Shown here: positions 63 to 7,350 of the stretch, piece by piece | How positions within the stretch are numbered: the stretch's first letter is position 1 | Layout of the letters: each line of letters opens with the position of its first letter | NCBI RefSeq assembly: GCF_000007985.2 | Contig: NC_002939.5 | Span: 2,130,001 to 2,162,000, forward strand | Origin: Geobacter sulfurreducens PCA | GTDB lineage: Bacteria; Desulfobacterota; Desulfuromonadia; Geobacterales; Geobacteraceae | Direction of reading: 5' to 3' | Length of the DNA: 32,000 nt | Notes under the pieces: generated by a model | The model's input: the letters and a program-made list of their open reading frames with translations, nothing else | Told to the model about the DNA's origin: nothing | Database searches by the model: none | Position numbers and translations under genes: made by a program

Positions 63-3000
63 TTACCAGGTCGTCAGACCAACCGCCCGGCGCAGAAGAA
101 TCAGTACATCGTTGATGTCAATCTTGCCGTTGCCGACCGGCTTGGAGGTAACCGGATCGACCGGCGCCACATCACCCATGCTCTGCACTGTCGAGGTCAA
201 CAGGGTGGGATCCGCGACCGCCTTGAGAACGATGAGCGCGTCATTGGCCGTAATCGCTCCGTCGCCATCCACATCGCCCTTGATGATCACGATGTTATTG
301 ACGGTTACGGTTACGGCGGTCGAAACCTTCGAGTTGCCGGCCGCATCATAGGCCTTGGCGGTCAGGCTGTAGACGCCGTTAGCAACGGTGGAGGTATCCC
401 AGCTGTAGCTGTAGGGAGAGGTCGTATCCGTGCTCGCGAGGACATTGTTGACGTAGAATTCGACTTTGGCAACTGCCAGGTTGTCCGTTGCGGTGGCATT
501 GACGGAGACGACACCGCTTACCGTTGCGCCGCTGGTCGGGGCCGACAGTGACACGGTCGGCGCGGTTGCATCGTTGGCGACCTTCACCGTCACGGTTGTC
601 TCGCCGATATTGCCTGCCGCATCATAGGCCTTGGCGGTCAGGGTATGGGTGCCATCACTTACGGAGGTCGTGTTGAGGCTGTAGGTAAAGGGCGAGCTCG
701 TGTCGGTGCGCTTGAGCACGTTGTCCAGGTAGAACTCGACCTTGGTCACCTTCACGTTGTCCGATGCACTGGCGCTGACGGTAATGCTTCCTTTGACGGT
801 CGCGTTATTGGCCGGAGAAGTGATCGATACGGTCGGCGCAGTGGTGTCGCCGATCTGGTTGTTCACCGTTACCGATACGGAGGTAGATTGGCCGATGTTG
901 CCGGCAGCGTCATAGGCCTTGGCAGTCAGGGTGTAGGTGCCGTTGGCCGAGGTCGTGGTGTTCCAGCTGTAGCTGTAAGGGGCGGTTGTCACCGTGGAAG
1001 CGACCGTGCCGTTCACCATGAATTCCACCTTGGTCACGCCCACGTTGTCAGAGGCTGTTGCGCTGACGGTCACCGTTCCGCTCACGGTCGCACCATTAGC
1101 CGGGGCACTCACCGCCACCGTCGGAGCAGCAGTATCGGACGGCAGATTGTAGGTTACCACCAGTTTCGGCCGCAGATTGGTATCGGACGCCTCGCTGGAA
1201 GCGAAGAGCCTGTAGCTGTCAACGGCGGCCTTGTTGGAGGAGTTGAGCAGAACACCCCTGTTGGCGGCCGGCGTCGCCAGCCAGGTCTTGACCAGATTGG
1301 TTATATTCCAGGCTTTATAACCAACGGTCTTGTCAACCAGAGGTGCATCAACCGGCGTGTCGATATCGGACTGGGCCAGGGGCACCCCGCCGTAAGCCAC
1401 ACTGCTCGCGGTCCAGGCATTGGTCCCGTCGTAGGTATTGCCAGTGCTTGAAGCGACAACCGGGTTCTTGTTGATGATGGCGGAGACCGGAATTTCGTAA
1501 GCGTCGTCACCACCGCCTTCAGTCAGGTAGAGGTAGAGCGTGGCGCTCTGGATCTCGGCATTGGCAGGCAGTGCGGAAACGTCCCACTTCATCACGACTG
1601 CGTTGGCCGGCGTGGCAGCGGGCCAGGTATAGGTGCTGAGGCTTACGCCGGTGGCGTTCACGTCGTCGTTGATATTCAGGAAGGTGTCTTCCACGGTATT
1701 CGGGAAATTGGCGCCAAAGGCATTACCGAAGATGGCCGTGTTGCTTCCCGACGGGGGAGTCGTCACATTGTTCACGCTCACGGTTACGCTGCTCGACTGC
1801 CCCACATTGCCCGCCGCGTCATAAGCCTTGGCGGTCAGGGAGTAGCTGCCGTTGACCGTGGAGGTGGTATCCCAGCTGTAGTTGTAGGGAGACGTCGTAT
1901 CCGACCCTTTGAGCACGTTGTTCACATAGAATTCGACCTTGCTCACACCGACGTTGTCCGACGCCGTGGCGGCCATACTCACCGTACCGGTCACGGTTGC
2001 ACCATTGGCGGGGGAGCTCACGGCAACGGTCGGAACCGTGGTATCGGCGACCGTATTGCTTACGGTGACCGTAACCGAGGAAGACTGACCAACGTTGCCC
2101 GCCGCGTCATAAGCCTTGGCGGTCAGGGAGTAGCTGCCGTTGGCCGTGGAGGTGGTATCCCAGCTGTAGTTGTAGGGAGACGTCGTATCCGACCCCTTGA
2201 GCACGTTGTTCACATAGAATTCGACCTTGCTCACACCGACGTTGTCCGACGCCGTGGCGGCCATGCTCACCGTACCGGTCACGGTCGCGCCATTGGCGGG
2301 GGAGCTCACGGCAACGGTCGGAACCGTGGTGTCGGCGACCGTATTGCTTACGGTGACTGCCACCGAGGAAGACTGACCAACGTTGCCCGCCGCGTCATAA
2401 GCCTTGGCCTGGAGGGTGTACGACCCGTTGGCATACGACGAGGTGTTCCAGGTTATCGAGTAGGGAGCCGAACCGTAGGTCGCGTAAAGGGAACCATTAA
2501 CATAGAGCTCCACCTTTGACACGCCCATGGCGTCGGTGGCGGAAACGTTTACCGTAACGGTTCCCGACACGGTTGAACTGCTGGTCGGAGAGGTAATGGA
2601 AGCCGTAGGAGCCGTCGTATCATTTACCACTGTCACGGAAAACGCCGTGGACTGTCCCACGTTCCCGGCGGCGTCGTACGCTTTGGCCTGGAGAGTGTGA
2701 GTGCCGGCGGAAAGCTGGGTGGTGTTCAGGCTCACACTGTACGGAGATGAGGTGTCGGTTCCTTTGAGGACGCCGTCCACATAGAGTTCAACCGATGTGA
2801 CGCCCACATTGTCAGTGGCGCTGATGGCAACGCTGGTGGTACCGGAGATGGACGAGCCCGAGGCGGGGGATGTAATCGAAACGGTGGGGGCAGTTGCTTC
2901 GGCCGCGCTTACGATATTTGAGTAGGTGCTTTCAGTGCCGGTGGCATCGTAGGCGGTGACGGCGAAATAATAGGTCTTGCTCGGGTCGAGACCGGTGAGA

Positions 3001-3206
3001 GTGGTGGAGGTCACTTTGCCGACCGTTCCGGTCCCGCTGAAGGGAGGGCCTGCCGAGTCGGCGTTGTAGTAGACCTTGTAGCCGGCAACGGTCGTTTCAG
3101 TGTTTGCATCCCACTGCAGGGTCACGTCCCGGGCCTGGCTGGCTGCCACCATGGTAAAACTGAGCAGCCAGGCAAGAATAAGAGTTGTTAGCGTGCGGGT
3201 TTTCAT
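63..3206 (-). CDS. Large secreted surface protein: signal peptide, FN3, 4 Ig-like repeats, DNRLRE/CBM-like beta-sandwich module, 3 Ig-like repeats, C-terminal dockerin-type repeat pair
   Basis: The ORF spans 63..3281. I place the start at ATG 3206, giving MKTRTLTTLILAWLLSFTMVAASQA, a typical signal peptide, with AAGGAG 7 nt upstream. Seven repeats end in the AKAYDAAGN motif. The central block runs from WDVSALPANAEIQSATLYLYL to SSEASDTNLRPKLVVTY. The tail carries GDVDGDGAITANDALIVL and GNGKIDINDVLILL, which are dockerin-like Ca-binding repeats. Confidence 0.85.
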   Translation of the reverse strand: MKTRTLTTLILAWLLSFTMVAASQARDVTLQWDANTETTVAGYKVYYNADSAGPPFSGTGTVGKVTSTTLTGLDPSKTYYFAVTAYDATGTESTYSNIVSAAEATAPTVSITSPASGSSISGTTSVAISATDNVGVTSVELYVDGVLKGTDTSSPYSVSLNTTQLSAGTHTLQAKAYDAAGNVGQSTAFSVTVVNDTTAPTASITSPTSSSTVSGTVTVNVSATDAMGVSKVELYVNGSLYATYGSAPYSITWNTSSYANGSYTLQAKAYDAAGNVGQSSSVAVTVSNTVADTTVPTVAVSSPANGATVTGTVSMAATASDNVGVSKVEFYVNNVLKGSDTTSPYNYSWDTTSTANGSYSLTAKAYDAAGNVGQSSSVTVTVSNTVADTTVPTVAVSSPANGATVTGTVSMAATASDNVGVSKVEFYVNNVLKGSDTTSPYNYSWDTTSTVNGSYSLTAKAYDAAGNVGQSSSVTVSVNNVTTPPSGSNTAIFGNAFGANFPNTVEDTFLNINDDVNATGVSLSTYTWPAATPANAVVMKWDVSALPANAEIQSATLYLYLTEGGGDDAYEIPVSAIINKNPVVASSTGNTYDGTNAWTASSVAYGGVPLAQSDIDTPVDAPLVDKTVGYKAWNITNLVKTWLATPAANRGVLLNSSNKAAVDSYRLFASSEASDTNLRPKLVVTYNLPSDTAAPTVAVSAPANGATVSGTVTVSATASDNVGVTKVEFMVNGTVASTVTTAPYSYSWNTTTSANGTYTLTAKAYDAAGNIGQSTSVSVTVNNQIGDTTAPTVSITSPANNATVKGSITVSASASDNVKVTKVEFYLDNVLKRTDTSSPFTYSLNTTSVSDGTHTLTAKAYDAAGNIGETTVTVKVANDATAPTVSLSAPTSGATVSGVVSVNATATDNLAVAKVEFYVNNVLASTDTTSPYSYSWDTSTVANGVYSLTAKAYDAAGNSKVSTAVTVTVNNIVIIKGDVDGDGAITANDALIVLKAVADPTLLTSTVQSMGDVAPVDPVTSKPVGNGKIDINDVLILLRRAVGLTTW
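1809..2384. repeat. Two near-identical 288-bp tandem units inside the surface-protein gene; a third copy begins at 2385 but diverges within a few dozen nt
   Basis: The anchor string gcccgccgcgtcataagcc occurs at 1809, 2097 and 2385, a period of 288 nt or 96 aa. Manual alignment of units 1809-2096 and 2097-2384 shows about 9 mismatches. The protein repeat is TVADTTVPTVAVSSPANGATVTGTVSMAATASDNVGVSKVEFYVNNVLKGSDTTSPYNYSWDTTST.NGSYSLTAKAYDAAGNVGQSSSVTV. Confidence 0.9.
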
Positions 3207-3279: not shown

Positions 3280-3337
3280 AAAAAAGAGAAACAGCCCGCC
3301 TTAGTCTTTTGATGGACTAATGAGGAACCTGTTTCTC
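3280..3337 (-). terminator. Intrinsic terminator forming the expression platform of A-type aptamer copy 1
   Basis: On the minus-strand RNA, GAGAAACAG (3337-3329) pairs with CUGUUUCUC (3294-3286) and is followed by UUUUUU (3285-3280). The 5' arm contains the aptamer's 3' P1 strand GAAACAG, so P1 and the terminator are mutually exclusive. Confidence 0.7.
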
Positions 3338-3428
3338 GCCAACCCGGCTATCCTGAAAACCCTAGGACATTTCAGGACCCGTAGCTTTGTGTCCCCAGGT
3401 TACCCTGGGTTTACCCCTTCGGAAACAG
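3329..3428 (-). promoter_or_regulatory. GEMM-I class (c-di-GMP-I / cGAMP family) riboswitch aptamer, A-type copy 1
   Basis: The minus-strand RNA reads CUGUUUCCGAAGGGGUAAACCCAGGGUAACCUGGGGACACAAAGCUACGGGUCCUGAAAUGUCCUAGGGUUUUCAGGAUAGCCGGGUUGGCGAGAAACAG. It matches the remembered Vc2/GEMM-I pattern GGGCAAACC-[hairpin with GNRA loop]-GGGACGCAAAGCC-[P2]-AGCNGGGUU. P1 is CUGUUUC/GAAACAG. One hairpin is CCCAGG-GUAA-CCUGGG and P2 is UCCUGAAA/UUUCAGGA. Confidence 0.75.
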
Positions 3429-3482
3429 TACTGCTTGATTATTCCTTTTGTTGGTATTATCGGCCCTGTTTTGCAGAACCGT

Positions 3483-3498
3483 TGTGACTCGTATCACC
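3483..3498. promoter_or_regulatory. CRP/FNR-type palindrome TGTGA-CTCGTA-TCACC between the two aptamers (copy 1)
   Basis: It matches the TGTGA-N6-TCACA consensus at 9 of 10 positions. The same motif with the same flank (TCACCAAA) recurs at 6219..6234. In both copies its centre lies about 60 nt upstream of the 5' end of the A-type aptamer P1. Confidence 0.45.
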
Positions 3499-3570
3499 AA
3501 AACCGGCCATGTCGCAAAAAAGATTCAACCACATGATTTACCGTCTATTTTCGTTGCGGTTGGCTTCCCG

Positions 3571-3629
3571 AAAAAAAACAAAAAAAAGCCGGGGCCGTAT
3601 ACCATTTCAGGCATTTCGGCAACCCGGCT
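3571..3629 (-). terminator. Intrinsic terminator overlapping the 3' strand of B-type aptamer copy 1
   Basis: The minus RNA reads CCGGG-UU-GCCG [19-nt loop] CGGC-C-CCGG, followed by CUUUUUUUUGUUUUUUUU. The 5' arm is the conserved AGCCGGGUUGCCG strand of the aptamer. Confidence 0.65.
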
Positions 3630-3697
3630 GTCTCTGTGAGACCCTGTAGGCTTTCCGCCCCATCCTCGCGGATGGTTGAGTATTATCGTGTACCGCC
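3613..3697 (-). promoter_or_regulatory. Divergent GEMM-I-like aptamer, B-type copy 1
   Basis: The minus RNA reads GGCGGUACACGAUAAUACUCAACCAUCCGCGAGGAUGGGGCGGAAAGCCUACAGGGUCUCACAGAGACAGCCGGGUUGCCGAAAU. It has the GEMM-I layout: AACC, then a GNRA-capped hairpin (CCAUCC-GCGA-GGAUGG), GGNNGNAAAGCC, a short P2 (GUCUC/GAGAC) and AGCCGGGUUGCCG. The junction strands are non-canonical. Confidence 0.6.
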
Positions 3698-3717
3698 TAT
3701 TCAATTTTCAGCTGCTG

Positions 3718-3746
3718 TTGATACACCCCTTTGTCCCCCCTGTCAA
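3718..3746 (-). promoter_or_regulatory. Candidate sigma70-type promoter for leader cassette 1
   Basis: The minus strand reads TTGACA (3746-3741), a 17-nt spacer, then TATCAA (3723-3718), about 20 nt upstream of the B-type aptamer. The analogous TTGACT-17-TACTAA occurs in cassette 2. Confidence 0.4.
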
Positions 3747-3838
3747 CCTTTTTAACCTTGGGGGGCGCTAAAGAATTCAACAGCATATGCACCGAACGAC
3801 CTCCCGGTGCGTGCATCAGGGGGGGCGTTCACTCCTCG

Positions 3839-3859
3839 AAACCCTCATCGTGTTGAGGG
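3839..3859 (-). terminator. Weak hairpin terminator downstream of the 3870..4835 gene
   Basis: The minus RNA forms CCCUCA-ACACGA-UGAGGG followed by UUU. It lies directly after the stop codon at 3870-3872 and before the cassette-1 promoter. Confidence 0.35.
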
Positions 3860-3869
3860 CATCAGCCTG

Positions 3870-4835
3870 TTAGGGCACGACCTTGAAAATCCTGAGATTC
3901 TTCGGCGCCGACAAAACTTCCGGCGGCACCGATCCGCAGCCAATGGGCTGGGTCGATACGACTACGTTATCGATAAGCTCTCCGACGGTTGAATGGGTAC
4001 CGTCATGATGATAAAGGCTCAACCAGAGATTCCGGATTTTGAGGGACGATGTGGTTCTGATCCACAGATCCTGATAGTCACCCAGCAGCTTTGAATCCAG
4101 CCAAGTCGCCAGGCGACCGTCCGCTCCCACCCCCGTAGTGGTTGGCGTGCCCATATCGAGCATTTGCTCGACGCAGTACCACTGCCCCGCCACCAAGTTA
4201 GGAAGGGATTCTGTCGGACGATGCTGCGGTTGTTTGCAGTAATATGCCCCGCTGTCGTAGACGCAGGGCAATGAGTCGCCCCAGCAATTGCCAGACGGAT
4301 TGGAGCAGTCCTGGTACATGCCCCGGTAGTAGCTGTAGGCATAGGGCGTTGCAGGACCTTCCATGTACTGCACGAAAAAGCCGGCCCAGTCACTACCGGT
4401 TGGCCTGATGCCGGATGCTCCGACCAGATTCCGGTCTCCAGCCGCCAAACCACCGCCGTGATTACGGGCACTGAAGTTGAACCCTGGTTCATACATGAAG
4501 TACCAGCGAGCATAGAGTTTGTCATACCCGGAAGATAGGACTTTAAACAGATCGGATCCCCCGCCCTGCCCTGCAGGCACCCGCAAACGGATTGCCCGGT
4601 TCGCAGGATCACCTGCTGGTCCCGTGTTGGTCACAATAAGGTTTTCCGTGTCAGGATTGCCGTCGTAGTCGCTGAAGTTGGCCTTGGGATTAGTTCCCTC
4701 GAAATCCTCGCAAAAAACTGTTCCTGCAGGGGGATTCGAGCATTCGTTCCGCGAGATGCCTGCCGACGCCATGCCGGCGGCGAGCAACAAAAAGGCTGAA
4801 ACGAGGCAACCTGTTCTCGTGAATGAAAGTTCCAT
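3870..4835 (-). CDS. Secreted hypothetical protein, possibly a jelly-roll (ConA/LamG-like) glycan-acting fold
   Basis: The ORF spans 3870..4856. I prefer ATG 4835 (MELSFTRTGCLVSAFLLLAAGMASAG, a signal peptide) because GGAG lies 8 nt upstream. It is Cys-rich. The C-terminal strand GELIDNVVVS is typical of lectin/lyase jelly rolls. Only 14-35 nt separate it from the upstream gene, so it is likely co-transcribed. Confidence 0.7.
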   Translation of the reverse strand: MELSFTRTGCLVSAFLLLAAGMASAGISRNECSNPPAGTVFCEDFEGTNPKANFSDYDGNPDTENLIVTNTGPAGDPANRAIRLRVPAGQGGGSDLFKVLSSGYDKLYARWYFMYEPGFNFSARNHGGGLAAGDRNLVGASGIRPTGSDWAGFFVQYMEGPATPYAYSYYRGMYQDCSNPSGNCWGDSLPCVYDSGAYYCKQPQHRPTESLPNLVAGQWYCVEQMLDMGTPTTTGVGADGRLATWLDSKLLGDYQDLWIRTTSSLKIRNLWLSLYHHDGTHSTVGELIDNVVVSTQPIGCGSVPPEVLSAPKNLRIFKVVP

Positions 4836-4870: not shown

Positions 4871-5950
4871 TCAGTTAACAACCTTGAGACCACTGGGAGG
4901 CGCTATTGTTGCGGTTCCCCCACCCGAGCTGGTACCAAACGTAATCTGCTTGCTGGCGCTGGGACTACCATTGGCATCAACCACATAGAGATACGCCGTA
5001 GAGTTGGTGGGAAAACTTCCTTGGTTAACCGTAACCTGCAACTGCCCGTCAGTCCAGGTATTGGTGGGAATCTGCATTTCGCATTTAGTTGCACTGGAGA
5101 AGTTGGCATTGTCACATATCATGACACGAGAGAAGGTGTTATCAACATATATGTCGTCCATCCACGAAGTGATTGCTGGTGGAGAGTTTCCGCCAGCATC
5201 CCACCCAATCATCCAAACATAGTCAAAGTTAAACGCTGCACAATTAGCCCAAGAAGAATTGTTAGCTAAATATTTGCCATTTATTTTAAGCGAATACGTT
5301 CTGCTAGCACCATCAATCATTACTTCGTGAAAGTTCCATTGGCCAACATTGCCATTCCAATTAGCCCAGCCTTCGTTATTACAATAACCTGTATCGCTTC
5401 TATAAATATAATTGTGCATCTGGGTCCATGACATGGTTTTGTTAGACACATCAGAGCTACTGGACAATCTTATAAACTTACTGGAATGATCACCTGATAC
5501 TGGATTGGTTCCAGGCTTCCACCACCAAGAGACATAGATTTTATTAGTTCCAGCAATTCGCCGACCCTCCAGTAATCCCTGGGTTGTACTTGTGGCTCTG
5601 TAAGTCGCTGTGCTCAACCCACGCTGTTCGCTGGCCGTAGTTGAATACTTTACACAAGCGCCGCCATCCCAGGTGCATTGTGTTTCCCAAGGCTTACCTG
5701 ACCCAGTCGGGACAGTTGCCCCATTGGCAAGTCCCGAATACGCTGATTGGTTTTCCACGGTATCCCAGAACTGGGGCGCCACCGTAGTCTTTGCGCCAAA
5801 TCCGCTACCCGAGATGGTAACTACTTGGCCATTGGAGAGCGTTGAGTTACTCACCGATGTAATCGACGGGGCAGCGAGAGCGCCGAGCGGAACCAGAAGT
5901 GGAATGAGGAGTGACGGGACTAACGCCTGAAGAGTCCTCTTGGTTTTCAT
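4871..5950 (-). CDS. Secreted IPT/TIG-like + LamG/ConA-like domain hypothetical protein
   Basis: The start is ATG 5950 with GGGAGG upstream. MKTKRTLQALVPSLLIPLLVPLGALAAP is a signal peptide. SITSVSNSTLSNGQVVTISGSGFG is IPT/TIG-like. The central region WWWKPG..., WMDDIYVDN is jelly-roll-like. A second IPT-like beta domain lies near the C-terminus. Confidence 0.75.
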   Translation of the reverse strand: MKTKRTLQALVPSLLIPLLVPLGALAAPSITSVSNSTLSNGQVVTISGSGFGAKTTVAPQFWDTVENQSAYSGLANGATVPTGSGKPWETQCTWDGGACVKYSTTASEQRGLSTATYRATSTTQGLLEGRRIAGTNKIYVSWWWKPGTNPVSGDHSSKFIRLSSSSDVSNKTMSWTQMHNYIYRSDTGYCNNEGWANWNGNVGQWNFHEVMIDGASRTYSLKINGKYLANNSSWANCAAFNFDYVWMIGWDAGGNSPPAITSWMDDIYVDNTFSRVMICDNANFSSATKCEMQIPTNTWTDGQLQVTVNQGSFPTNSTAYLYVVDANGSPSASKQITFGTSSGGGTATIAPPSGLKVVN

Positions 5951-6016: not shown

Positions 6017-6070
6017 ACAAAAAACAGCCCCCCGCGGCAATGGTACGACTTGTCGACAGATGGGCTGTTT
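6017..6070 (-). terminator. Intrinsic terminator forming the expression platform of A-type aptamer copy 2
   Basis: On the minus RNA, AAACAGCCC (6070-6062) pairs with GGGCUGUUU (6030-6022), followed by a U-run. The 5' arm overlaps the aptamer 3' P1 strand. Confidence 0.65.
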
Positions 6071-6166
6071 CTTCGCCAACCCGGCCATCCTGAAATACCT
6101 AGGACGATTTCAGGACCCGTGGCTTTGTGTCACCAGGTTACCCTGGTTTTACCTCTTCGGAAACAG
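6065..6166 (-). promoter_or_regulatory. GEMM-I class riboswitch aptamer, A-type copy 2
   Basis: The minus RNA reads CUGUUUCCGAAGAGGUAAAACCAGGGUAACCUGGUGACACAAAGCCACGGGUCCUGAAAUCGUCCUAGGUAUUUCAGGAUGGCCGGGUUGGCGAAGAAACAG. The architecture is the same as 3329..3428. Two differences are compensatory: CCCAGG/CCUGGG becomes ACCAGG/CCUGGU, and GCUA/UAGC becomes GCCA/UGGC. Confidence 0.75.
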
Positions 6167-6218
6167 AGCGAATATTTTTTTATTTGTTTATACTTTCGTC
6201 CACCTGCTAAAAATTAAA

Positions 6219-6234
6219 TGTGATTCGTGTCACC
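6219..6234. promoter_or_regulatory. CRP/FNR-type palindrome TGTGA-TTCGTG-TCACC (copy 2)
   Basis: The half-sites and the 3' flank match 3483..3498 while the spacer bases differ. It occupies the same position relative to the A-type aptamer. Confidence 0.45.
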
Positions 6235-6258
6235 AAAGCCCCATTTGACCTATCAGAC

Positions 6259-6310
6259 AAAAAAAATGCCGGGAGCCGCTACCCATGAACTGGTATTTCG
6301 GCAACCCGGC
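6259..6310 (-). terminator. Intrinsic terminator overlapping B-type aptamer copy 2
   Basis: The minus RNA reads GCCGGG-UU-GCCG [loop] CGGC-U-CCCGGC followed by AUUUUUUUU. Confidence 0.65.
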
Positions 6311-6379
6311 TGTCTCGTGGAGACCCTATAGGCTTTCCGCCCCATTCTCGCGAATGGTTTAGTATTATCGTCTACCGCC
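6295..6379 (-). promoter_or_regulatory. Divergent GEMM-I-like aptamer, B-type copy 2
   Basis: The minus RNA reads GGCGGUAGACGAUAAUACUAAACCAUUCGCGAGAAUGGGGCGGAAAGCCUAUAGGGUCUCCACGAGACAGCCGGGUUGCCGAAAU. Relative to copy 1, the hairpin changes from CCAUCC/GGAUGG to CCAUUC/GAAUGG, which is compensatory. Confidence 0.6.
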
Positions 6380-6391
6380 TGCTTTGTGCTT

Positions 6392-6420
6392 TTAGTACAT
6401 GAGTTGACGGTTCAAGTCAA
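6392..6420 (-). promoter_or_regulatory. Candidate sigma70-type promoter for leader cassette 2
   Basis: The minus strand reads TTGACT (6420-6415), a 17-nt spacer, then TACTAA (6397-6392). The layout parallels cassette 1. Confidence 0.35.
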
Positions 6421-6517: not shown

Positions 6518-6535
6518 TTTACATGTGCATGTAAA
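6518..6535. promoter_or_regulatory. 18-bp palindrome TTTACATG-TG-CATGTAAA in the divergent AT-rich intergenic region (candidate operator)
   Basis: The 8-bp arms are perfect with a 2-nt spacer. It is flanked by repeated GAAA(A)ATTT strings. It lies between the cassette-2 promoter and the PEP-CTERM gene. Confidence 0.3.
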
Positions 6536-6586
6536 GAAAATTTGAAAAATTTCAAGCAACTACCTACAACGCTCTGAATTACGGGG

Positions 6587-6592
6587 TATAAT
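6587..6592 (+). promoter_or_regulatory. Possible -10 box (TATAAT) for the PEP-CTERM gene
   Basis: It is a perfect TATAAT about 85 nt upstream of ATG 6676, but no good -35 is visible. Confidence 0.25.
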
Positions 6593-6675: not shown

Positions 6676-7350
6676 ATGATACCCCCAGGCAAGTTATCTC
6701 TTATTATGCTTTTAACATTGTTACTGGCGGGGCCTTCCGCGTGGAGCTACCCCGTGCAATACACGTTGGATGGGTACGTAATTCAGGGCCCCGGCATTGA
6801 TGATTCGGCAGGCTTTCTTGACAATATGGGGATTACCGTGGGAAGTCATGTTTCCTACACCGTTGTCATAGACCTGGATGCCAGAGGGACGGTGTTAATG
6901 AGTGACGGCACCGTAACCGAGCGGACAGACCCGTATGGTAGAGGGACATTCTATGCTCACTACGCCGGGGGCTCGACCATCACTTCTGACAATTATCTGA
7001 GCTCATACAATGGAATATCCGAAAACAACTATGGCGGGAACAAGTGGTTGACCAGCACCTTTTCTGAACGCTGGCTCAGTGTGAGCAGTGGAAACAACTA
7101 TCTTTCGTTCTACGACATGCTGCTGCAACCGGATGCCCTCGGGGGGTGGTCGGCAAGTTCCGCTCGCGCTTTCGGGGCCGGCACCATGCGCAACACCATT
7201 TTCGACGAGTTCGGTAACAGTTCCAAATTCTACTTCCTGGCTCAAATAACGAACGCAGAAACCGTTCCCGTGCCCGAACCATCAACCTTCGCACTTCTTG
7301 GGGCCGGACTTGCCGGAATTATCCTTCTCAGAAGAAAGAAGTACTTTTAA
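6676..7350 (+). CDS. PEP-CTERM sorting-domain secreted protein
   Basis: GAGGAGGG lies upstream of the ATG. There is an N-terminal signal peptide (LLTLLLAGPSAWS). The C-terminus VPVPEPSTFALLGAGLAGIILLRRKKYF has the VPEP motif, a TM helix and a basic tail. Confidence 0.9.
   Translation: MIPPGKLSLIMLLTLLLAGPSAWSYPVQYTLDGYVIQGPGIDDSAGFLDNMGITVGSHVSYTVVIDLDARGTVLMSDGTVTERTDPYGRGTFYAHYAGGSTITSDNYLSSYNGISENNYGGNKWLTSTFSERWLSVSSGNNYLSFYDMLLQPDALGGWSASSARAFGAGTMRNTIFDEFGNSSKFYFLAQITNAETVPVPEPSTFALLGAGLAGIILLRRKKYF

Follow-up and report, generated by a model that had tools for sequence, protein, structure and literature searches.

Two leaders in a 32,000-nucleotide stretch of the Geobacter sulfurreducens PCA chromosome (the window, by which we mean the whole stretch analysed) each carry a tandem pair of GEMM-I riboswitches. 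These cassettes are almost certainly the pairs GSUR3010/GSUR3009, in the leader of GSU1945, and GSUR3012/GSUR3011, in the leader of the GSU1948-GSU1947 operon, acting as ON switches that depend on cyclic GMP-AMP (cGAMP). An earlier note on this DNA, made from the sequence alone, had described the cassette upstream of the secreted two-gene operon as a second copy of one located nearby; that finding is correct but not new, the four elements having already been annotated (GSUR3009-3012) and published. Our own analysis established the family and structure of the elements, their overlap with terminators, their conservation and the fact that they are the published ones.

A scan of the whole window with Rfam cmscan returned exactly four matches, all to the cyclic diguanylate (c-di-GMP) family c-di-GMP-I (GEMM-I, RF01051), all on the minus strand and all full-length (model positions 1-87). 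Against a gathering score of 35 bits they scored 61.1 (3335-3425), 60.7 (6072-6163), 45.7 (6297-6373) and 43.1 (3615-3691). The open reading frames at 63-3206, 3870-4835 and 4871-5950 are GSU1945, GSU1947 and GSU1948, as their lengths and spacing agree exactly, at an offset of 2,135,322, with the published G. sulfurreducens PCA coordinates (2135385-2138528, 2139192-2140157 and 2140193-2141272, respectively; Hallberg et al. 2019, eLife, PMC6456294, supplementary RNA-seq table). The 'cyclic diguanylate-responsive riboswitches' annotated in that work coincide with the four Rfam matches, and its supplementary sheet 'cGAMP regulon' lists all four as cGAMP riboswitches. Genome-wide, 17 GEMM-I riboswitches, tandem ones among them, have been counted on 13 transcripts; a later paper includes GSU1945 and GSU1948 among these 13, and another mentions both as GEMM-I-regulated. 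The two aptamer types distinguished in the earlier note are thus real and structured, although they are not new types, both being annotated members of RF01051 (GSUR3009-3012). We refer to the upstream 77-nt aptamer of each leader as a (B-type in that note) and to the downstream 91-nt aptamer as b (its A-type).

Read on the minus strand, both leaders run in the order promoter, a, terminator (8 U), palindrome, b, terminator (6 U), untranslated region (UTR) of 60-70 nt and start codon (Table 1), which is the common order that had been claimed for 6017..6420 and 3280..3746. Promoters were read from the sequence by eye and terminators were set by folding; a simple promoter/terminator scanner missed all four terminators (loops >8 nt) and both promoters.

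Each aptamer shares a strand with a terminator

Folding places a terminator of -22 to -26 kcal/mol behind every one of the four aptamers, with a tract of U6-U8 and a 5' arm that is aptamer sequence. In the a units this arm (GCCGGG..GCCG) combines the P3 3' strand with J1/3 and the uppermost part of P1, and the b units use the P1 3' strand for it (GAGAAACAG or AAGAAACAGCCC; P1 GAAACAG). The b terminator arms are therefore shifted slightly between the copies (GAGAAACAG versus AAGAAACAGCCC) and still overlap the P1 3' strand, just as had been proposed.

Because the strand is shared, aptamer and terminator are mutually exclusive, and we therefore read all four elements as ON switches. Binding of ligand would keep the 3' strand in the aptamer; with the strand held there, no terminator would form and RNA polymerase would read on. 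A transcript from the upstream sigma-70-type promoter would have to clear both switches in this way. Such ON-switch logic fits the loss of expression that is seen without cGAMP.

The two aptamer types differ in their ligand pockets

In the Vibrio cholerae riboswitch Vc2, G20 reads the alpha base of the ligand and C92 pairs with the beta base, and cGAMP riboswitches have A in place of G20 (A14 in Gs1761). The published boundaries of Gs1761 are P1 G1-G8/C76-G84, J1/2 A9-A14, P2 from C15, J2/3 A41 and J1/3 G74-C75, with ligand contacts at A11, A12, A14 and C75 (PMC6274999). Mapped from these boundaries, positions of the Rfam model correspond, in Vc2/Gs1761 numbering, as follows: 9 to A18/A12, 11 to G20/A14, 38 to A47/A41 and 83 to C92/C75.

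The a aptamers read ACG-AUAAUA-CU and UU-GC-CG across these junctions, agreeing with Gs1761 at G8, A9, A11, A12, A14, C15, G74 and C75; they have A at position 20, and A47 and C92 are present. Judged by these pocket residues, the a aptamers are canonical GEMM-Ib sensors of 3',3'-cGAMP. The b aptamers read CCG-AAG(G/A)G-GU and UU-(G/A)G-CG, with G20 and A47 kept and G at the A18 and C92 positions, and this G at model positions 9 and 83 is invariant in six distinct b-type sequences. The adenine that marks GEMM-Ib (at Vc2 G20/Gs1761 A14) is accordingly found in the a copies only, the b copies having G, and the full canonical c-di-GMP pocket (G20, A47, C92 and A18) occurs in none of the four copies, though the fold is that of the family. 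By the same residues, the b pocket corresponds to that of neither the c-di-GMP nor the cGAMP class. If the alignment is shifted so that the next C becomes the b pocket cytosine, with a 3-nt J1/3, the G at the A18 position still persists. Among the matches listed, the closest canonical relatives, on metagenome contig L133, share the P1/P2 design of b, but have AAAAG and GC in the pocket.

All four copies resemble Vc2 and RF01051 in their P1/P2/P3 junction, the GNRA loop on P2 (GCGA in a, GUAA in b), the J2/3 adenine (the A47 equivalent) and the conserved P3 3' strand AGCCGGGUU. They depart from the family in the A at the G20 position of a, in the G at the A18 and C92 positions of b, and in the lack from b of the P3 CUAA internal loop. 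The a copies are most readily compared with Gs1761 (pgcA leader, PDB 4YAZ), which comes from the same genome and shares their J1/2 AUAAUA, C-G first P2 pair, J1/3 GC, ON-switch terminator logic and GacA dependence. However, Gs1761 is single, whereas here a second, different aptamer follows each a, and this b aptamer lacks the A20 of the class.

Published expression data and the logic of the tandem

The dependence of these genes on cGAMP in vivo is taken from the literature. In published RNA-seq data (PMC6456294), the values in the wild type (WT), the esnD deletion and the gacA deletion were 359, 751 and 16 for GSU1945, 272, 527 and 58 for GSU1948, and 261, 414 and 71 for GSU1947. Deletion of gacA, which encodes the cGAMP synthase, lowers these genes 4- to 22-fold (log2 of gacA deletion over WT, -4.49, -2.23 and -1.88, in the same order), and deletion of esnD, which lowers c-di-GMP and raises cGAMP, changes them by log2 +0.67 to +1.06 (PMC6456294). 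The proposal that the three genes belong to one second-messenger regulon had therefore already been tested, and the expression experiment suggested for it, in strains with altered cGAMP synthase, is in print with the predicted outcome (rounded, log2 -4.5, -2.2 and -1.9). In the same data, b-leader RNA falls from 83 to 4 (GSU1945) and from 13 to 1 (GSU1948) between WT and the gacA deletion.

Several observations weigh against the view of the two leaders as cGAMP-dependent ON switches throughout. The GSU1948 coding sequence (CDS) stands far above its own b leader (272 against 13 in WT, 58 against 1 in the gacA deletion), a gap for which simple attenuation in series does not account; the mismatch may stem from differences in RNA stability, from processing or from a further promoter. 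The a-leader RNA of GSU1948 itself falls from 67 to 4 (17-fold) in the gacA deletion, a loss that control by termination alone does not predict. In addition, at two of the positions that contact the ligand, the b aptamers match neither the pocket for c-di-GMP nor that for cGAMP, and the ligand of each aptamer is assigned from sequence together with a later supplement.

If both aptamers of a leader sense cGAMP, the pair would merely sharpen the dose-response, making it more digital. The published table, which labels all four elements 'cGAMP riboswitches' (PMC6456294), speaks for such a design, as does the fall of a and b leader RNAs and genes in the gacA deletion and their rise in the esnD deletion. 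There are also precedents. The omcAHG operon (GSU2885a/b) and GSU0183a/b in the same genome likewise have two GEMM-I elements in series, each aptamer with an RNA-seq signal of its own that falls in the gacA deletion. The tandems of Sherlock et al. 2022 (PMC9481103), including a triple c-di-GMP-I array of Bacillus thuringiensis, likewise consist of same-class aptamers with their own expression platforms, an arrangement expected to sharpen the response and catalogued in 347 c-di-GMP-I doublets; unlike those tandems, the leaders described here differ between aptamers at contact positions and have a promoter-like element in between. It is also conceivable that a cGAMP bound the other way round pairs, through its adenine, with the G at the C92 position. 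Harder to accommodate is that b has G, not A, at the position that defines GEMM-Ib (G20/A14), as well as G for A18 and C92, and that, in the accessible parts of later papers, only 12 of the 17 G. sulfurreducens aptamers are reported to bind cGAMP, the members not being named. Moreover, in the gacA deletion the b/a ratio of GSU1945 drops from 0.82 to 0.19 while its CDS/b ratio hardly moves (4.3 to 4.0), on very low counts (4, 1 and 16; n=2). On values down to 4 and two replicates, this is a hint that cGAMP acts at step a only. Overall, we consider cGAMP sensing by both aptamers plausible, if a little short of even chances.

A pair with two different ligands would behave otherwise. Here a would sense cGAMP and b either c-di-GMP, through G20, or another dinucleotide, through the altered beta-site, and full-length mRNA from the upstream promoter would need both signals (a Boolean AND gate). 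Three contact positions separate the types (A20/A18/C92 in a, G20/G18/G92 in b), each set being invariant within its type across diverged lineages, and the nearest canonical relatives listed, those on L133, combine the b architecture with AAAAG and GC. The CDS/b ratio dips from 4.3 to 3.0 in the esnD deletion, where c-di-GMP is lower, and an AND gate for c-di-GMP and cGAMP is absent from the 2022 catalogue of tandem logic gates (PMC9481103). Yet overall expression goes up when the esnD deletion lowers c-di-GMP, the published table names b a cGAMP riboswitch, and with G at the C92 position the beta guanine of the ligand loses its Watson-Crick partner, so that plain c-di-GMP binding would be unexpected. 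We hold this two-signal gate only tentatively, and the balance of these points tilts against it.

A palindrome and candidate promoter between the aptamers

Each leader has a TGTGA-N6-TCACC palindrome past the U tract of terminator a, 52-54 nt ahead of b P1. The motif matches only twice in the 32 kb, where 0.19 matches are expected, and both matches lie between aptamers. In orthologues the half-sites are kept and the N6 and flanks vary. The same motif stands ahead of GEMM-I aptamers at other loci, from several Geobacteraceae-like lineages, namely a stand-alone b (L072), the b of L199 and of L201, an a-type aptamer (L118), a more distant GEMM-I (L066) and two a-type aptamers in Oryzomonas japonica (L038). 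It is accompanied by a -10-like element at L072 (~5563-5610), L038 (~3621-3665 and ~5736-5780), L066 (~2375-2420) and L118.

Across nine lineages (one entry each), a -10-like hexamer starts at offset 22 past the site, that is, after a 21-nt gap whose sequence is not conserved. The nine hexamers are GATAAT, GAAAGT, AATAGT, TATTAA, GATAGT, GTAAGT, GATAAA, GATAAC and TATAAT; eight of the nine have A at position 2, and agreement with TATAAT peaks at exactly offset 22, averaging 4.0 there compared with ~2 at most other offsets (the next highest being 3.67 and 3.33). The centre of the site lies 29.5 nt ahead of the -10 element. Promoters of class II activated by CRP or FNR have their site at -41.5 and no -35 element. 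The leaders share with them a 16-bp palindrome, read as GGTGA-N6-TCACA on the minus strand of both, that differs from TGTGA-N6-TCACA by one mismatch and, about 29.5 bp from its centre, a -10-like element, the likeness being one of sequence geometry alone. Because the 21-nt spacing equals this class II geometry, palindrome and -10 may be an internal, activator-dependent promoter serving b, with predicted starts at ~3449 and ~6180-6185. The site is thus present in both leaders as had been described; it had been counted as part of an RNA cassette, however, and is better read as a promoter element at the level of DNA.

With its own start for b, each leader would be a stack of two modules whose output is (b ligand) AND (cGAMP OR active regulator). 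The confinement of the palindrome to the two inter-aptamer positions, the retention of its half-sites while N6 and flanks drift, and the fixed offset of the hexamer, equal to the -41.5 geometry, all argue for this arrangement; the site is present in all six b-type lineages, and L072 has site, -10 and b without an upstream a. Set against these points, b-leader RNA is almost gone in the gacA deletion (83 to 4 and 13 to 1), and therefore any internal promoter would, in those conditions, be a weak one or depend on cGAMP. Conservation among lineages that are related to one another is not fully independent; the palindrome could also serve as an RNA hairpin or as a site for a repressor or roadblock; the site is missing from most of the other GEMM-I aptamers of the metagenome sample; and the promoter is a prediction. 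No CRP-family gene was found among the window genes scanned (those for exopolysaccharide and PEP-CTERM functions), a literature search for a Geobacter CRP regulon returned nothing usable, and a 2004 study of delta-proteobacterial regulons gives CRP-like TGTGA sites in Desulfovibrio and none for Geobacter. We regard the case for stacked modules as evenly poised, and lean slightly towards the site marking an activator-dependent promoter for b.

Both the ligand of the downstream aptamer and the second, activator-dependent promoter are matters that we infer. Their combination, in which b is a conserved GEMM-I pocket variant with G at both beta-reading positions (A18 and C92), each of the six distinct b-type sequences having its own class II promoter of the CRP/FNR type, strikes us as unlikely, though worth stating. 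In the accessible literature, which does not extend to the primary binding papers of 2015, we found no earlier account of the b pocket variant or of the class II spacing between aptamers, and a search for the Rfam variants c-di-GMP-I-GGC and -UAU yielded nothing usable.

The cassettes are conserved in structure between copies and among relatives

The two leaders align end to end with a mean column identity of 78%, distributed unevenly. The aptamers are 91-92% identical and the 16-nt palindrome, where both changes fall in N6, is 88% identical, versus 26-74% in the spacers, terminator loops and UTRs, in keeping with the proposal that the elements are conserved and the spacers have diverged. The a aptamers differ at 9 positions, comprising one double change, one change of U-A to U.G and six in loops, bulges or junctions. 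The b aptamers differ by 7 substitutions and two single-base indels, with one double change, one change of C-G to U.G and the others unpaired. No pair is broken between copies by the 9 (a) and 7 (b) substitutions, an outcome with P = 0.004 (a) and P = 0.007 (b) if substitutions are placed at random.

Three of the copy-to-copy differences had been put forward as compensatory, and two are genuine. The B-type hairpin pair is a true double change in a (pair 27-34, U-A versus C-G, giving CCAUUC/GAAUGG versus CCAUCC/GGAUGG), with a U.G intermediate in Geobacter anodireducens, and the A-type hairpin pair is one in b (pair 20-35, A-U versus C-G, giving ACCAGG/CCUGGU versus CCCAGG/CCUGGG). The third, GCUA/UAGC versus GCCA/UGGC, is not established: it requires a register other than the GEMM-I consensus, and the wider alignment gives that register no preference. 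Under the consensus, the position that changes from U to C has an invariant G as its partner, so that U.G becomes C-G, and the A-to-G change falls in an AG internal bulge. The alternative four-pair register is 87.5% paired in six distinct b-type sequences versus 97.8% for P3 in the family register, a comparison that is not like for like in that the family P3 has 15 pairs, including a distal stem common to both registers.

More distant copies were sought among relatives. The leaders of G. anodireducens and of a second G. sulfurreducens strain, in which the GSU1945-leader promoter is kept, are near-identical to those of PCA and uninformative for covariation. L199 and L201, whose GSU1948 homologues are 55% and 50% identical, have the full cassette (promoter, a, terminator, palindrome, b and terminator), with TTGACT/TTGACA-17-TAnnnA ahead of the a aptamer, and L072 (homologue 57% identical) has only the palindrome, b and its terminator, with no upstream a. 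The b-type loci are L072:5641-5736, L199:457-558 and L201:1786-1885. A scan of contigs by a C-terminal peptide pattern of GSU1948 homologues recovered mostly distant ones, from Patescibacteria, Nitrospirae and other groups, while G. sulfurreducens was not among them; of those loci, GEMM-I matches were confined to L038 and L066. Of the 21 distinct a-type sequences assembled, 12 are among the listed matches of a metagenome pattern scan, most of which are chance matches in coding DNA, and nine come from loci obtained otherwise; no new b-type sequences were among the matches listed from that scan.

Across the 21 a-type sequences, 97.9% of cells are paired and 4 pairs are changed on both sides, P1 contributing a G-C/A-U/G-U series; in 500 column shuffles no score was as high, and slid registers were 33-49% paired. 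The 6 distinct b-type sequences are also 97.9% paired, with 2 covarying pairs, but 61 of 500 shuffles scored as high, so that these few sequences are statistically weak. The P1/P2/P3 three-way junction is maintained by pairing across relatives; because GEMM-I structures have already been solved, these counts confirm membership of the family and add no new structure.

The resemblance of the copies might, in principle, reflect shared ancestry alone after a recent, inert duplication, and their alignment from end to end would be expected of one. This we consider extremely improbable. Identity is concentrated in the aptamers and palindrome, no pair is broken, both leaders are kept in other strains and the GSU1948 leader also at distant homologous loci, and both downstream operons respond to gacA. 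Because the elements are kept while the spacers diverged, pairing is intact and the cassette recurs at 50-55% homologues, the data support purifying selection on RNA structure, as the earlier note had argued, rather than an inert duplication.

Three further loci have arrangements of their own. At L002:1792-2360, an identical GSU1948 protein and b leader are found with a different upstream neighbour (a HAD hydrolase) and a different promoter region, and P1 of the a aptamer contains an A.C mismatch (scoring 40.6 in Rfam versus 45.7). Metagenome contig L133 (1600-2700, minus strand) has four GEMM-I aptamers of two alternating types within ~550 nt, a duplicated tandem pair with a P1/P2 design near that of the b type and a canonical pocket. 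In O. japonica (L038), three a-type, GEMM-Ib-like aptamers (3684-3771, 5271-5358 and 5794-5881) surround a distant GSU1948 homologue; the one at 5271-5358 is a pattern match, absent from the Rfam results at the gathering score.

Downstream and neighbouring genes

The features of the two leaders and the genes that they precede are collected in Table 1.

Table 1. Features of the tandem GEMM-I leaders and their downstream genes, in window coordinates.
Feature	Position	Strand	Description
GSUR3009	3328-3428		GSU1945b in PMC6456294
GSUR3010	3577-3694		GSU1945a in PMC6456294
GSUR3011	6064-6166		GSU1948b in PMC6456294
GSUR3012	6257-6376		GSU1948a in PMC6456294
Sigma-70-like promoter, GSU1948 leader	6392..6420	-	TTGACT (6420-6415), 17-nt spacer, TACTAA (6397-6392)
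Aptamer a, GSU1948 leader (GSUR3012)	6293..6380	-	GEMM-Ib; J1/2 AUAAUA, A at G20 position, J1/3 GC
Terminator of a, GSU1948 leader	6259..6310	-	Stem 6310-6268, A, U8 6266-6259; -24.6 kcal/mol
Palindrome, GSU1948 leader	6219..6234	.	TGTGA-TTCGTG-TCACC (minus strand GGTGA-N6-TCACA)
-10-like element(s), GSU1948 leader, predicted	6187..6197	-	GAAAGT 6197-6192 overlapping TATAAA 6192-6187
Aptamer b, GSU1948 leader (GSUR3011)	6065..6166	-	J1/2 AAGAG, J1/3 GG; GEMM-I fold
Terminator of b, GSU1948 leader	6019..6073	-	5' arm AAGAAACAGCCC, 3' arm GGGCUGUUU, U6 6024-6019; -25.4 kcal/mol
Sigma-70-like promoter, GSU1945 leader	3718..3746	-	TTGACA (3746-3741), 17 nt, TATCAA (3723-3718)
Aptamer a, GSU1945 leader (GSUR3010)	3610..3697	-	GEMM-Ib; pocket same as Gs1761
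Terminator of a, GSU1945 leader	3580..3628	-	Stem 3628-3588, U8 3587-3580, G, 8 more U; -25.8 kcal/mol
Palindrome, GSU1945 leader	3483..3498	.	TGTGA-CTCGTA-TCACC; identical in L068, L073 and L074
-10-like GATAAT, GSU1945 leader, predicted	3456..3461	-	21 nt past palindrome
Aptamer b, GSU1945 leader (GSUR3009)	3329..3428	-	J1/2 AAGGG, J1/3 GG
Terminator of b, GSU1945 leader	3280..3337	-	5' arm GAGAAACAG 3337-3329, 3' arm CUGUUUCUC 3294-3286, U6 3285-3280; -22.4 kcal/mol
GSU1945	63..3206	-	1047-aa secreted repeat protein: FN3, seven Big_7 Ig, DNRLRE (Pfam, NCBIfam)
GSU1948	4871..5950	-	Signal peptide, N-terminal IPT/TIG Ig domain (Pfam TIG E = 1e-7), concanavalin-A-like jelly roll
GSU1947	3870..4835	-	Second operon gene, secreted hypothetical; polysaccharide-lyase-14-like PF21294, E = 0.002, below curated cut-off

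Both secreted products of the operon had been called jelly-roll-like, a description that holds for GSU1948. Its confident AlphaFold2 model (predicted local distance difference test score, pLDDT, 86) includes a beta-sandwich, which Foldseek matches to the concanavalin A (ConA)-like lectin/glucanase domains of BoNT Hc, Cip1 and AbnA domain 4, with E ~1e-6 to 1e-7. Many assemblies encode the identical protein, and a homologue with 88% identity is assigned to G. anodireducens. At the C-terminus of GSU1945 there is a sub-threshold, dockerin-like match. Upstream of the GSU1948 leader lie a PEP-CTERM protein and a polysaccharide/exosortase-type cluster (genes for a CapK-like ligase, PGA_cap, a glycosyltransferase and asparagine synthase).

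At the same syntenic locus in one further G. sulfurreducens strain (L073:3001-4092) and one G. anodireducens strain (L074:3001-4095), the GSU1948 proteins are 42% and 47% identical to that of PCA, while the leaders are near-identical and GSU1947 is 89% identical. Because the similarity in L073 ends inside the b terminator loop, the comparison suggests allelic replacement of the GSU1948 surface protein just 3' of the riboswitch.

Two intergenic regions contain other repeats. Directly past the GSU1947 stop codon, at 3838-3860 (minus strand), the short hairpin CCCUCA-ACACGA-UGAGGG, with UUU after it, may act as a weak terminator between the GSU1948-1947 operon and the promoter of the GSU1945 leader. 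Two inverted repeats, TTTACATG-TG-CATGTAAA and an FNR-like TTGAA-AAAT-TTCAA, occupy 6519-6556 (plus strand) in the AT-rich DNA that separates the promoter of the GSU1948 leader from the divergent PEP-CTERM gene at 6676, and TATAAT occurs at 6587-6592.

Significance of the tandem leaders

The identification of these leaders amounts to the rediscovery, from raw sequence, of the published cGAMP/GEMM-Ib regulon, which governs extracellular proteins tied to metal-oxide respiration; it indicates that the first reading of the sequence works as a method, and by itself adds nothing to the field. The two details that go beyond the accessible literature would, if true, change how the leaders are understood. 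The b aptamer would sense what a does not, either another dinucleotide or cGAMP in the opposite orientation, and three signals would converge on each leader, from cGAMP, from the b ligand and from a regulator that binds DNA. Were both details real, the leaders would be not two identical switches in series but a logic device of mixed protein and RNA parts.

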